Source of the DNA: Eledone cirrhosa
Taxonomy: Eukaryota
Direction of reading: 5' to 3'
Assembly: GCA_964016885.1 (NCBI GenBank)
Contig: OZ024742.1
Coordinates: 365,986,001 to 366,050,000, forward strand
Length of the DNA stretch: 64,000 nucleotides
Part shown: positions 10,146 through 41,559 of the stretch, piece by piece
How positions within the stretch are numbered: position 1 is the stretch's first letter
How the letters are laid out: the number at the start of each line of letters is the position of its first letter
Made by a program: the position numbers and the translations under genes
Notes under the pieces: generated by a model
Told to the model about the DNA's origin: nothing
Database searches by the model: none
The model's input: the letters and a program-made list of their open reading frames with translations, nothing else

Positions 10146-10265
10146 ACACACACACACACACACACACACACACACACACACACACACACACACACACACA
10201 CACACACACACACACACACACACACACACACTATATATATATATATATATATATATATATATATA
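10146..10265. repeat. (CA)n followed by (TA)n microsatellite
   Basis: Direct. Confidence 0.95.
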
Positions 10266-10468
10266 CGTAGGTCCCGGGTTGAGTCGGGGATAACCACAGT
10301 AAGTAAGGTACTCAATACATGGCAGAGTAAAATGTTTTTATTTTATAGAAGGAGCTTCTACAGGACTAGTACTGTTTCATTCAGATGAAATCTTCAGGAA
10401 GCTTCCTGAAGATTTCATCTGAATGAAACAGTACTAGTCCTGTAGAAGCTCCTTCTATAAAATAAAAA
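10266..10468. mobile_element. Fold-back element in (TA)n: perfect 134-bp palindrome (10335-10468) plus one-sided ~70-bp tail; probable Penelope-like (PLE) terminal remnant
   Basis: Arms 10335-10401 and 10402-10468 are exact reverse complements centred on AAGCTT; TA tracts on both sides; hammerhead motif in each arm. Confidence 0.75.
10401..10449 (+). ncRNA. Type I hammerhead ribozyme motif (mirror copy 10354-10402 on the minus strand)
   Basis: GCTTC-CTGAAGA-T TTC ATCT GAA T-GAAA-CAG TACTAGTC CTG-TA-GAAGC: canonical core, stems I, II and III all pair, GUA cleavage triplet. Confidence 0.8.
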
Positions 10469-10619
10469 TAATATATATATATATATATATATATATAATA
10501 TATATATATATATATATATATATATATATATATATATATATATATATATATATATATATATATATATATATATATATATATATATATATATATATATATC
10601 AATATATATATATATATAA

Positions 10620-11383
10620 TCTGGGTAATATTAAATATTATCCAATTACGAATATGAGAATAGCTCAATGTAAAATAACAAGTATATTACAGAGTCGAAA
10701 TACATTATAAATACTAATCAAAGAGTGTTTAAATCATTTAATCACTTACGATCGTTTCATCCTAGCACAAGACCGATTTCATCGGAGTATATAACAAAGT
10801 TTGAAACACAAATATAATATCAGAAGTTTGTCATAAGAAAATTAGGAGCATACATAATATGGGAAGTAAGCATAAGTATCAACATTTGTATAAAAAAAGA
10901 TAGCAGTTGAACCTTTCATATCCATTCTTGGAGGTATCTTTTGGAGGTGTATTTTTGTGTTTTGGGATTTGTGTTTGGGCTGCACACCTGCTCTTGTTGG
11001 TTTTGTGGACTTTTGTCATGCTTATGATATATGTTTACTTACTAATTATGATATATGACTTGCACTATACGTAACCTTTCTATAGCAACATGCTTTTAAA
11101 ATAGTTAATGCTTTTAGCTGCTCCTGATTTGATTTTATTGCATTTATATGCTCATATTTTTCACATGCTTCTTCCACATTTTGCTATCTTTTCTTATATA
11201 ATTGTTGATACTTATGCTTACTTCCCATATTATGTATCCGCCTAATGTTCTCATGACAAACTTCTGATATTATATTTGTGTTTCAACCTTTATTATATAA
11301 TCCGATGAAGCGGCCTTGTACTAGGATGAAACGATCGTAAGTGTTTAAATGTTTTAAACACTCTTTGATTGTTATTTATAAAG
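10620..11383. mobile_element. Older fold-back element in (TA)n: ~200-bp inverted arms (10705-10905 / 11182-11381), ~280-bp spacer, one-sided tail 10620-10704
   Basis: Arms are diverged reverse complements; TA tracts flank both ends. Confidence 0.7.
11298..11343 (+). ncRNA. Hammerhead-like motif, CCGATGA core variant (mirror 10743-10789 on the minus strand)
   Basis: CCGATGA...GAAA-CGATCG-TA-AGTG; palindromic stem III ACGATCGT; stem I TACT/AGTG in the left-arm copy. Confidence 0.55.
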
Positions 11384-11729
11384 TATATATATATATATAT
11401 ATATATATATATATATATATATATATATATATATATGTGTGTGTGTGTGTGTGTGTGTAAATATATTGAAAACAAAGCGAGGTTTCACATTCTACTCAAC
11501 CACCTATTATATATATATTATGTGTACATACATATATGTGTGTGTACGCGTATATACGTGTGTGTGCGTATATATACGTGTGTATATATATATATGTGTG
11601 TGTGCGCATGTGAGTGTGAATATTTGTTCGGCTGTGTAACGCCCGGGGCGAAATTAATTTGCTCTATAATCATATCTGGCTAGTCACCTTTTTTGAAAAT
11701 TAAAATTCTCCCTACCGATTACCATTATT

Positions 11730-12300
11730 TTGGTGCCGTTCCAGAGACGTTGGTCACCCGATGTACAAGTAAACAAGAGCATACCGTCTCTATTTACGGT
11801 TTCTAATATATCAGACCAAATTTCATATTTCCGAATGATGGAAGGCAGAAATCTGAATTAAGTGGAACAGTTGGTGCAATAATGCACCAACTTCAGCATT
11901 CTGTCATCCGCAGAAGGAAGGTAAATATAAAAGCGAAACACGCTATCTTCAGTTCGGGTTTCTTGCCAACCCTTACCTATGGTCATGAATCTTGGATCAT
12001 GACCGAAAGAATACGATCGCAAATGCAAGCAGCCGAAATTAGGTTCCTCTAATCGGTCTTTGGAGTAACATTACCCAATAGGGGCCGTTGCTCGGAGATC
12101 CGAGATTCACTCTTCGTAGAGCTGTTACTTCCTCACATCAAGGGGTCACAGCTCCTATACTATAGGCATGTGGTTGGAATGTCTGAGGAAATAATCTCTG
12201 GACAGATTTTACAGGAAAATAAAAGCAGTACAAGACGCAGACGTACACCAGGCACAATATTGTTGGGTATCTTGCAGGATAAATTTGAGACTGTTGTTTC
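11730..12300 (+). mobile_element. RTE-clade LINE fragment (C-terminal RT/thumb region), decayed
   Basis: Frame from 11834 reads ...KAKHAIFSSGFLPTLTYGHESWIMTERIRSQMQAAEIRFL*SVFGVTLPNRGRCSEIRDSL..., matching the RTE 'PTLTYGHExW.MTER.RS..QAAEM.FL' motif; in-frame stop at 12050. Confidence 0.85.
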
Positions 12301-12309
12301 TAACAGATC

Positions 12310-13506
12310 CCTGTCTGAGGACTACCCTCCCTCTGACAGAATTGTCTGACGACTACCCTCCCTCTGACAGGAATATCTGAGGACTGCCCTCCCTCTGACA
12401 GAAGTGTCTGGGGACTACCCTCCCTCTGACAGAAGTGTCTGAGGACTGCCCTTCTTCTGAGAGAAGTGTCTGACGACTACCCTCCCTCTGACAGAAGTGT
12501 CTGAGGACTACCCTCCCTCTGACAGAAGTGTCTGAGGACTGCCCTTCCTCTGACAGACGTGTCTGACGACTACCCTCCCTCTGACAGAAATGTATGACGA
12601 CTGCCCTCCCTCTGACAGAAATGTATGACGACTGCCCTCCCTCTGACAGAAATGTATGACGACTGCCCTTCCTCTGACAGAAGTGTCTGAGGACTACCCT
12701 TCCTCTGACAGAAATGTATGACGACTACCCTTCCTCTGACAGAAGTGTCTGACGACTGCCCTTCCTCTGACAGAAATGTCTGAGGACTACCCTCCCTCTG
12801 ACAGAAATGTATGACGACTGCCCTTCCTCTGACAGAAGTGTCTGACGACTACCCTCCCTCTGACAGAAGTGGCTAAGGTCTGCCCTTCCTCTGACAGAAG
12901 TGTCTGACGACTACCCTCCTTCCGTCAGAATTGTTTGACCACTACCCTCCCTCTGAGAGAAGTGTCTGACGACTACCCTCCCTCTGACAGAAGTGTCTGA
13001 CGACTACCCTCCCTCTGACAGAAGTGTCTGACGACTACCCTCCCTCTGACAGAAGTGTCTGGGGACTACCCTCCCTCTGACAGAAGTGTCTGAGGACTGC
13101 CCACCCTCTGACAGAATTGTCTGACGACTACCCTCTCTCTGCAAGAAGTTTTTGACGACTACCCTCTCTCTGACAGACGTGTCTGAGGACTGCCCTTCCT
13201 CTGACAGAAGTGTCTGAAGACTACCCTCCTTCTGGCAACAAGTGTCTGAGGACTGCCCTTCCTCTGACAGAAATGTCTAACGACTACCCTCCCTCTGACA
13301 GAAGTGTGTGACGACTACCGTTCTGACAGACGTGTCTGATGACTGCCCTTCCTCTGACAGAATTGTCTGACGACTGCCCCTCCCTCTGACAGAAGTGTCT
13401 GAGGACTGCCCTTCCTCTGACAGAACTATCTGACGACTAACCTCCCTCTGACAGAAGTGTCTGAGGACTGCCCTTCCTCTGACAGAAATGTCTGAAGACA
13501 ACCCTC
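12310..13506. repeat. Minisatellite, 31-bp unit (AGTGTCTGACGACTACCCTCCCTCTGACAGA), ~38 copies
   Basis: Period read at 12961/12992. Confidence 0.95.
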
Positions 13507-39850: not shown

Positions 39851-39897
39851 ATATATATATATATATATATATATATATATATATATATATATATATA

Positions 39898-40380
39898 TGT
39901 AAATAGGGAGAAAAAAACGATTATTAGGAAGAAACATTTTTTTTTTTTTCTTTATTTTTTTCTCTTTTTTCTGGGTTAGAAAATGTTTAAAATAAAATAT
40001 TTTACTTTGTGCGAAGTGTTAAGGTATTAGTTAATTTATTTATTAATTAACAATAGCATTGATTTATTTATTAATTTATTTAATAATTGTCAATTAGCGG
40101 TTTCAGCATTTTATACATTATGAAAGGAGGGAATTTGTATTGGTATAAAATGAAGGAGAGAAGATGAGGTGATGTTGAACATTTTATTGAAATGGGAAAG
40201 AAAGAATAATATTATTTTATTTACAGGCATAGTTCTTGAGGATAAGCAGTTCAAAAAGTGTTATTATGGCAGGAACGCTTAGAGAAGTTGATCCATGATG
40301 GAGGCAAATGGTAGTCTGGAGTTGGATAAAGGAAAAAATATATTTTTCTTCCTAATAATCGTTTTTTCTCCCTATTTACA
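39898..40380. mobile_element. TIR-bounded AT-rich element in (TA)n (MITE-like or short-arm fold-back)
   Basis: TGTAAATAGGGAGAAAAAAACGATTATTAGGAAGAAA … TTTCTTCCTAATAATCGTTTTTTCTCCCTATTTACA. Confidence 0.65.
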
Positions 40381-40462
40381 CACACACATATATATATATA
40401 TATATATATATATATATATATATATATATATATATATATATATATATATATATATATATATA

Positions 40463-40801
40463 TTTGAAAGTGAGGTTTTTTTACAAAATGAAAAAAAACG
40501 TGGTGTCCCACACGAGTGAAATTATAAAGAAAAAAGATGAAATCGAGAATGCAACTGGAGTCTTTTTTTTTAAATATATTTATTTGGTTCCTTTACCGGT
40601 TTCGCAGTTCTTGTGCTTTTCATGAGTAGAATTGAGATGGAGGGTTTGTGGTTTTTCTCGCATCTGATGCGAGAAAAACCACAAACCCTCCAATTCTACT
40701 CATGAAAAGCACAAGAACTGCGAAACTGGTAAAGGAACCAAATAAATATATTTAAAAAAAAAGACTCCAGTTGCATTTTCGATTTCATCATTTTTCATTA
40801 T
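40463..40801. mobile_element. Fold-back element in (TA)n: palindrome 40524-40801 centred on 40665, 60-bp one-sided tail; decayed hammerhead-like motif in each arm
   Basis: GCATC-T-GATGC centre; CTCATGA-AAA-GCA…TGC-GAAA-CCGG/CTGG-TA then AATAAA. Confidence 0.7.
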
Positions 40802-40840
40802 ATATATATATATATATATATATATATATATATATATATA

Positions 40841-41108
40841 ATTCACAAGAATCAAAGCTATGTTCAAAGCATTTATTCACTTACAATTGTTTCATCCAAA
40901 CCTAGGCTTGCAATCTTCGGAGCATTTTTCAATGTTTGTACATATAATTGACTTCCTATCCAACGCAGGAGACATACAGATACAACTGCTCTGTAGAGCA
41001 ACTGATGTTATTACATTGAGCTATTTATATTACTGGTAATAAGGTAGTAATAAATTAATGACCTTCCCTGTTTATAGTTTAAAATATACATAACTATAAA
41101 TAGTAATA
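40841..41108 (-). mobile_element. Single-copy insert between TA tracts with a hammerhead motif at 40878-40924 (CCGAAGA core)
   Basis: Minus strand TGCT-CCGAAGA-TTG CAAGC CTAG GTTTG GAT-GAAA-CAATTG-TA-AGTG-AATAAA; same layout as the 11298 motif. Confidence 0.6.
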
Positions 41109-41559
41109 TTATATATATATATATATATATATATATATATATATATATATATATATATATATATATATATATATATACACACATACATATATATATTATC
41201 GTTTGTGTGTGTGCTTATTACTGAGTTGGACGAAGTTTTAAAACGTGACTTGTATTTTAATACAATACCTACAAATATGTAAATTGAGTCAGCGAGAAAT
41301 ATGAACTTTGTGATAAGTTATAGATTATAATATACTTTAACTTTACATTAACATATTTCTAATGAAAGACACTGGCTAAGTTTTTCAAATAATTTCGAAA
41401 TTAACAATTTCAAGTGATATAACCTTTTTCATAATTAAGTTTGTGTTTGGAATATTAATTTAGAGACTCTTACATAAAACTATGATGAACGTTACTTTTT
41501 TAATAAATAATTAGTAGGATATGATATGGTATGGTTCAGTAAGCCCTGAGGTACTTGTA

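Follow-up and report, generated by a model that had tools for sequence, protein, structure and literature searches.

A 64-kb window of the Eledone cirrhosa genome (the whole stretch of 64,000 nucleotides analysed here, positions 365,986,001 to 366,050,000 of contig OZ024742.1), which consists mainly of satellites and microsatellites and ends in an rDNA unit (57773-64000), contains ten inserts bounded by (TA)n. The question raised by this locus is whether these inserts form a separate system of fold-back elements bearing hammerhead ribozymes, as proposed in a preliminary description made from the letters alone, or whether they derive from elements already known. Our analysis, extended to the 3.0-Gb assembly (1796 contigs), indicates that they are very probably the 5'-truncated 3' ends of several families of Penelope-like elements (PLEs), inserted into (TA)n with predicted hammerheads, and with a fold-back that was likely made afresh at each insertion.

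Runs of (TA)n flank all ten inserts, which were assigned to eight families: A (10266, with a fragment at 22467), B (10620, with 40841), C (20184), D (21437), E (22552), F (23430), G (39312) and H (40463). Six of them are inverted repeats, as first described; their arms were computed (Table 1), and in each case an extra sequence of about 45-160 nt is present on one arm only, with the motifs facing outward. A strict type I hammerhead descriptor passed three window arms (both arms at 10266 and the left arm at 10620), compared to an average of 0.00 over 30 locally shuffled sequences. Both arms at 39312 were added when the core was relaxed, and a looser stem II added both arms at 20184 and the motif at 22552, together with one stray match at 43511; an initial descriptor in which stem II was required to start at 10.1 gave no matches. 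The motifs at 21437, 22467, 23430, 40463, 40841 and on the right arm of 10620 were identified by eye and from family majorities.

The core boxes are found in register with stems I-III, and the core is kept while the stems vary across families. The claim that every insert carries a hammerhead holds for the families, whose majorities all have the type I layout, but not for each window copy, as several are broken: G8 is lost at 23430, position 3 and stem II are changed at 40463, and U3 faces G8 at 22467. The canonical core is restored in the majority of 25 family F copies, and the majority of 25 family H copies shows a U3-A8 core with stem II closed by G-C. For family D, the predicted hammerhead fold lies within 1.1 kcal/mol of the minimum, whereas family G, with C4 and U6, is the weakest hammerhead case. 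The sequence variation of family B gives no support to its own stem II. An AATAAA signal lies less than 60 nt from the predicted cut site in 7 of the 15 arms checked.

The strict descriptor was then applied to a genome sample of 80 stretches of 10 kb (800 kb; loci L226-L305), taken at round coordinates on large contigs. It returned 89 matches, against none in the reversed sequence and 3 and 0 in shuffled sequences, and these matches were spread over 40 of the 80 stretches and fell into 16 sequence clusters. The large, diverse population proposed at the outset was borne out, as was an excess over shuffled DNA. The proposed targeting of (TA)n was likewise supported, since (TA)5 or longer was found within 300 nt downstream of 75/89 motifs, compared to 27% of random positions. 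An inverted partner within 4 kb was present upstream of 48/89 motifs and downstream of 6/89 (pairs being counted twice). When stem I was not demanded by the search, at least four pairs in register were nevertheless found in 66 of 123 core-plus-palindrome matches, compared to 0/17 in reversed and 0/22 in shuffled controls and to 1-17 of 123 in slid registers. Extrapolation gives 2.9-3.3 x 10^5 motifs per genome (bootstrap 2.0-4.5 x 10^5), or about one per 10 kb, the density being computed with and without three satellite false positives in L272 and nine matches in L273 that belong to one array. This estimate is probably a lower bound, because the descriptor misses most of the window arms. In the same 80 stretches, remnants of PLE open reading frames (ORFs) were seen in 19 (19 kb of 800 kb), and 6.6% of the bases lie in local inverted repeats of at least 100 nt of any origin.

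Genome searches with each family yielded from 32 to 4830 first-look candidates, up to 40 of which were scored and 25-30 fetched. Each of the eight families shows the same footprint, consisting of 5' truncation, an inverted 5' copy and an optional tail at one end. The 3' ends cluster at two positions per family (61/151 nt after G12 in C, 49/116 in E and 162/204 in G), and the tail-less ends sit at an internal TA of the element in the six families printed. An inverted arm was present in 92/217 loci and absent within 1.45 kb in the other 125, and the position of the fold joint differs between copies. Within one insertion, the two arms agree at 254/320 polymorphic cells compared to 177 expected (C 18/18, D 12/12), and the two arms therefore share a template or master, unless later homogenisation made them alike. 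The fold-back shape was thus likely made afresh at each insertion, and not inherited. Fold and truncation points cluster in A at the 5' edge of stem I (L031-L060) and in C 96-132 nt upstream of G12 (L091-L120), a clustering set partly by query length. A spliced exon was considered for the A truncations at stem I and rejected, as no matching donor site was found in the 3' untranslated region (UTR) of L310.

The PLE origin proposed in the preliminary description was supported by ORFs for reverse transcriptase (RT) and GIY-YIG endonuclease joined to six of the eight families, of Hydra type in A, B, C and E and Neptune-like in G and H. In family C, loci L306 and L307 hold open Hydra-type frames of 725 and 680 aa in elements of about 3.5-3.8 kb, arranged in the order TA, tail, outward hammerhead, inversion joint, ORF, 1.2-kb UTR, tail-less hammerhead and TA. 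An antisense ORF beside the inverted arm was ruled out in this family, the junctions of L306 and L307 differing from each other as inversion joints. In family G, the ORF lies directly upstream in 14/25 loci, and L308 carries a 741-aa open RT/GIY-YIG frame with Pfam matches to RVT_1 (E=4e-11) and to GIY-YIG (E=2e-4, just under the Pfam cut-off). A Hydra-type ORF is found upstream of family B in 2/7 longer loci (L316, L317), assigned to Hydra via similarity to C only; a decayed RT/GIY-YIG ORF lies upstream of family H in L352 (1/8 longer loci), its endonuclease end being shared with L198; and for family A a Hydra-type ORF is present in L310, the single longer locus fetched. The C protein and family E have DKT and a CxCx5C linker and no cysteine pair inside GIY-YIG, the partial A-linked ORF has the CxCx5C linker only, and in the ORFs of G and H the motif is DKG and GIY-YIG contains a cysteine pair, the linker of G being Cx4Cx6C. 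Identity between the C and G proteins is only 22%, and this structure is therefore produced by no fewer than two PLE clades. Within this layout the inserts grade in length up to near-complete ORFs, as in L306 and L307, with the fold-backs at the short extreme. A partial-tandem pseudo-LTR arrangement is seen in an E copy in L314, direct upstream copies being rare in the other families, and a fixed palindrome of about 320 nt is present in the 3' UTR of family G, upstream of the hammerhead (L308:7975-8292; also L309, L318 and L319).

In the mechanism that we propose, the GIY-YIG endonuclease of the element likely nicks (TA)n, and reverse transcription, for which there would be two fixed start sites immediately 3' of the hammerhead, would include or omit the tail depending on the site used and would usually halt early. 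The template would be copied again, head-to-head with the first copy and up to the other site, either through snap-back on the cDNA or through renewed priming on the RNA. The placement of the tail between the two start sites is proposed by analogy with a lizard PLE, where the RT was shown to start on either side of it (Frangieh et al. 2024, PMC11167929).

Family D differs from a simple inverted element in that its 592-nt unit is repeated head-to-tail, with the 592->1 joint in 24 of 27 distinct loci (30 were fetched and three dropped as overlapping arrays). The insert at 21437 is thus a tandem unit, at odds with the preliminary description of the inserts as retrozyme-like but inverted rather than tandem. 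The arrays are short and dispersed over many contigs, and their copies are about 98% identical and TA-bounded. They end at unit position 592 (19/27) or 430 (8/27), with varied 5' truncation points, and inverted 5' arms end at 430 in eight loci and at 592 in two. Contigs of three runs (X1-X3) of a single sample also contain the tandem joint in abundance. No PLE ORF was found directly upstream of the family in any of the 30 loci, and a search for an autonomous partner with the 5' part of the unit returned only D-like matches, whose flanks were not read. Family D is an ORF-less unit resembling a non-LTR retrozyme, and it likely uses a PLE enzyme in trans. Further tandem hammerhead units of about 318, 467, 556 and 314 nt were seen at L270:5979-7294, L266:5069-6269, L273:4014-9826 and L268:5930-6693, respectively; the 318- and 467-nt units have a tandem-plus-inverted layout between TA runs, and the 556-nt unit forms a longer array.

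Private substitutions are as frequent in the hammerhead core (23/1291, 1.8%) as in the flanks (237/15097, 1.6%; p=0.56), and the inserted copies therefore look neutral. Columns with shared variants, on the other hand, number 0/50 in the core and 44/561 in the flanks (one-sided p=0.02), in a test performed on five families of best-scoring copies and at the column level, since the cell-level value (p=5e-10) overcounts shared variants. The latter comparison provides modest evidence that the core has been under selection in the source lineages, and the ribozyme likely matters in the source elements and not in the decaying inserted copies. With respect to the hairpin RNAs with self-cleaved ends that had been proposed, a long hairpin RNA would be plausible if the inserts were transcribed, but the self-cleaved ends are not, because, whichever strand is read, the ribozyme is in sense orientation in the 3' arm only, and this arm would pair with the 5' arm: for family A, the predicted hairpin (-125 kcal/mol) is about 79 kcal/mol more stable than the hammerhead (-46 kcal/mol).

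A rival reading, developed from the preliminary description, is that the inserts are a distinct class of non-coding fold-back ribozyme cassettes, transposing as hairpin units and yielding self-cleaved hairpin RNAs. Such cassettes would account for how common fold-backs are, with upstream inverted partners for 48/89 sampled motifs and downstream ones for six, for the clustering of fold points (in A many at 17-26 nt upstream of G12, in C 15/17 at 96-132 nt), and for a nearly identical junction in three A copies. However, junction sequences vary between copies, more than half of the copies (125/217) lack a nearby inverted arm, whole ORFs are enclosed by the same layout, cores decay at the flank rate, and the only sense arm would be held in a far more stable hairpin. 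We therefore find this reading highly improbable, and as a general class it is largely refuted. Nor does the non-coding character hold at 22552, where the end of a GIY-YIG ORF is present. The inverted arms might instead be post-insertional, produced by gene conversion or by hairpin-capped break repair at TA runs, or assembly artefacts. Perfect palindromes can be long-read artefacts, and the arms of one insertion are more alike than random copies, as conversion would also make them; this origin is nonetheless very unlikely, given that independent loci of a family share the internal site at which the inverted arm ends, that the arms of old copies are 5-10% diverged, and that tail-less ends at 23280 and 21599 are joined to TA in short-read contigs (from one sample, possibly the assembly's own).

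For family D in particular, the head-to-tail arrays could point to a satellite-like derivative of one PLE end, spread by local unequal crossover with no retrotransposition in trans, and local amplification has been raised for retrozymes (Li et al. 2026, 10.64898/2026.07.22.740005). We consider this improbable for arrays that are short, dispersed, nearly identical, TA-bounded and variably 5'-truncated, and that end, as do their inverted arms, only at the two unit positions given above.

Several points weigh against an origin of the inserts as truncated PLE ends folded back afresh. The clustering of fold points in A and C is what fixed fold-back masters would also give, and the arms disagree at 66/320 cells overall, in the older families. 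The link between family A and its ORF comes from one locus, across a 1.9-kb microsatellite-rich spacer, and no parent ORF was found for family F in 25 loci plus 2 longer ones. Pfam searches of the C, A and E frames and of the window endonuclease remnant returned no RT or GIY-YIG match, their identity being drawn from motifs, an Atlas look-alike search and by-eye likeness to published Hydra proteins. For each family, the copies studied were the 25-30 with the best scores among hundreds to thousands of candidates, with a bias towards the copy in the window. An Rfam scan of the window (E<=10) gave 110 matches, none of them to a hammerhead family; its miRNA matches were rejected as hairpin artefacts. 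Nicking, priming and cleavage are steps that we infer.

The coordinates of the inserts are presented in Table 1. The family C insertion, with arms of 561 nt matched at 559/561 positions, is young. The insertion of family D comprises one full 592-nt unit (21437-22028, sense on the - strand), the beginning of a further unit and an inverted arm without a tail, and the family E copy comprises the frameshifted end of a GIY-YIG ORF (22558-23045) followed by the 3' UTR. In the family B copy, stem I of the + hammerhead is broken. The family G variant carries C at position 4, U at position 6 and an extra U after A9, both arms of family H are broken alike at position 3 and in stem II, and the fragment at 40841 resembles B around the hammerhead only (about 78-86%). 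The hammerhead of the A-related fragment is likely inactive, judging from its core.

Table 1. Coordinates of the hammerhead-bearing inserts in the 64-kb window.
Feature	Position	Strand	Inverted-repeat arms	Hammerhead motifs	Tail and remarks
Family A insertion	10266..10470		10328-10401/10402-10475	10397->10359 (-), 10406->10444 (+)	tail 10266-10327; canonical core; 48 genome matches
Family B insertion	10619..11383		10700-10905/11182-11386	10785->10747 (-), 11302->11339 (+)	tail 10619-10699; C at position 4
Family C insertion	20185..21392		20273-20833/20834-21394	20373->20324 (-), 21294->21343 (+)	tail 20185-20272
Family D insertion	21437..22451		21595-21999/22046-22451	21758->21679 (-), 22288->22367 (+)	U3-A8 core, long loop II
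A-related subfamily fragment, 65 nt	22468..22532	-		core at 22515	U3 facing G8; by eye
Family E, 5'-truncated Hydra-type PLE	22549..23344	+		23213->23242	tail-less end near 23280; tail to 23344
Family F fragment	23430..23584	-		23564->23484	long loop II; G8 lost in window copy
Family G insertion	39314..39849		39320-39552/39569-39799	39627->39654 (+), 39494->39467 (-)	right-hand tail to 39849; variant hammerheads
Family H insertion	40464..40798		40523-40634/40691-40802	40623->40594 (-), 40702 (+)	tail 40464-40522
B-related single-arm fragment	40841..41105	-		core 40920->40882	stem II mismatched

The inserts are chained at 10232-11436, 20128-23603 and 39235-41196, the new (TA)n flank of one element being a target for the next, which places runs of different families side by side. 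Within the last of these chains, a TA-flanked insert with inverted ends of about 45 nt (39899-40387), in which no hammerhead was found, is probably a further truncated insertion. In family B, the three positions after A9 (10778-10776 on the - strand, 11309-11311 on the + strand) are hypervariable, with a heterozygosity of 0.58-0.64 and all four bases present; 29 four-base haplotypes occur in 59 copies, and the arms of one insertion match in 13/26 cells at this site compared to 20/24 at biallelic sites. CpG decay does not explain this variability, which could reflect an RT error hot spot or a quasi-palindrome effect. Elsewhere in the window, a short repeat in two inverted copies (17199-17537), with a tRNA B-box-like motif seen by eye, is probably a SINE, and the SSU gene of the rDNA unit spans 2473 nt compared to 1831 in the model, with long GC-rich insertions.

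Minimal hammerheads in PLEs, with a U3-A8 variant and low in vitro activity, were reported, as were hammerheads paired across opposite strands at distances of 100-700 bp (Cervera & de la Pena 2014, PMC4209133). Those described here are alike in their type I layout, short palindromic helix III, U3-A8 core, extra nucleotide after A9, many families per genome and opposite-strand pairs at that spacing, and differ in that positions 10.1-11.1 are often not G-C and in their number, about 2,000-9,000 per genome having been reported compared to 2-4.5 x 10^5 here, with different descriptors. An inverted 5'-truncated copy and a one-sided tail, features of PLEs generally that are also found here, were described along with the Hydra clade and its insertion into (TA)n (Craig et al. 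2021, 10.1101/2021.04.23.441226), and head-to-head palindromes with proposed self-priming were described by Arkhipova et al. 2013 (PMC3846280). Our Hydra-type families share with that clade the RT and C-terminal GIY-YIG, DKT, the CxCX5C linker, the lack of CCHH, the hammerhead near the 3' end and (TA)n. The clade was described from few families, whereas several are found here with hundreds to thousands of candidate copies; its elements tend, though not strictly, to be shorter than 3 kb, below the length of family C; and our 3' UTRs reach 1.2-1.9 kb (C, A), with tails of 60-90 nt rather than 30-40. The assignment was made from these motifs and from by-eye resemblance of the frames to Hydra-1_Obim. 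Families G and H resemble Neptune/Nematis, for which microsatellite targeting has been proposed for Neptune, in DKG and in the two cysteines between GIY and YIG, and G also in the cysteine linker before the endonuclease; the linker differs (CX2-5CxxC in those clades, Cx4Cx6C in G), as does the U at position 6 of the G hammerhead, and the placement was made by motifs only.

The preliminary description supposed that such elements were undescribed in cephalopods, and this does not stand as regards the elements themselves, since Hydra-1_Obim of Octopus bimaculoides is listed with a (TA)n preference and an annotated hammerhead (supplement of Craig et al. 2021, PMC8557442). As regards density, our literature search, with most subscription papers outside its reach, found no cephalopod hammerhead density of this order and no PLE footprint on retrozymes. 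In the parts available, a paper on Octopus vulgaris repeats reports 31 recently active PLE families with hammerheads unmentioned (PMC13282606), and the giant squid genome paper reports 235 Hammerhead_1 loci (PMC6962438). The inverted 5' copy, the tail, the hammerhead and the (TA)n targeting are thus already in print, and what is unusual here is the density. The freshest part is family D, an ORF-less unit with the full Penelope insertion footprint. PLEs have been put forward as a strong candidate for the mobilisation of retrozymes (Cervera & de la Pena 2020, PMC7229834; Li, Clavereau, Pollet 2026 preprint, 10.64898/2026.07.22.740005), in both cases from co-occurrence and sequence likeness, with no insertion footprint in the text covered. 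Like metazoan non-LTR retrozymes, family D is built of ORF-less tandem units, every one bearing a single type I hammerhead, and the 318-, 467- and 556-nt units are apparently of the same kind; family D is longer than the usual 170-400 nt and has a U3-A8 core and the two-end, inverted-arm and (TA)n footprint of PLEs.

The inserts are real, their motifs far exceed what chance would give, and PLE biology as already known explains them; the retrozyme family and the density estimate merit follow-up. Taken as a whole, it is fairly probable that about 3x10^5 hammerheads have been spread by Hydra- and Neptune-like PLEs, that the PLE-specific footprint of ORF-less tandem retrozymes is direct genomic evidence of their mobilisation in trans by a PLE RT-endonuclease, and that the ribozyme core is under selection in the source lineages. 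Which enzyme moves animal retrozymes is an open question, on which family D bears directly, as it carries the PLE footprint itself in young copies. Whether PLE hammerheads matter in vivo is another, and the core seems to have been spared here in the source lineages, compared to the dispensability of cleavage in vitro (Frangieh et al. 2024). The young Hydra-type families with open frames provide a system for studying the formation of inverted PLE ends, and, more speculatively, such dense head-to-head repeats may feed double-stranded RNA pools.

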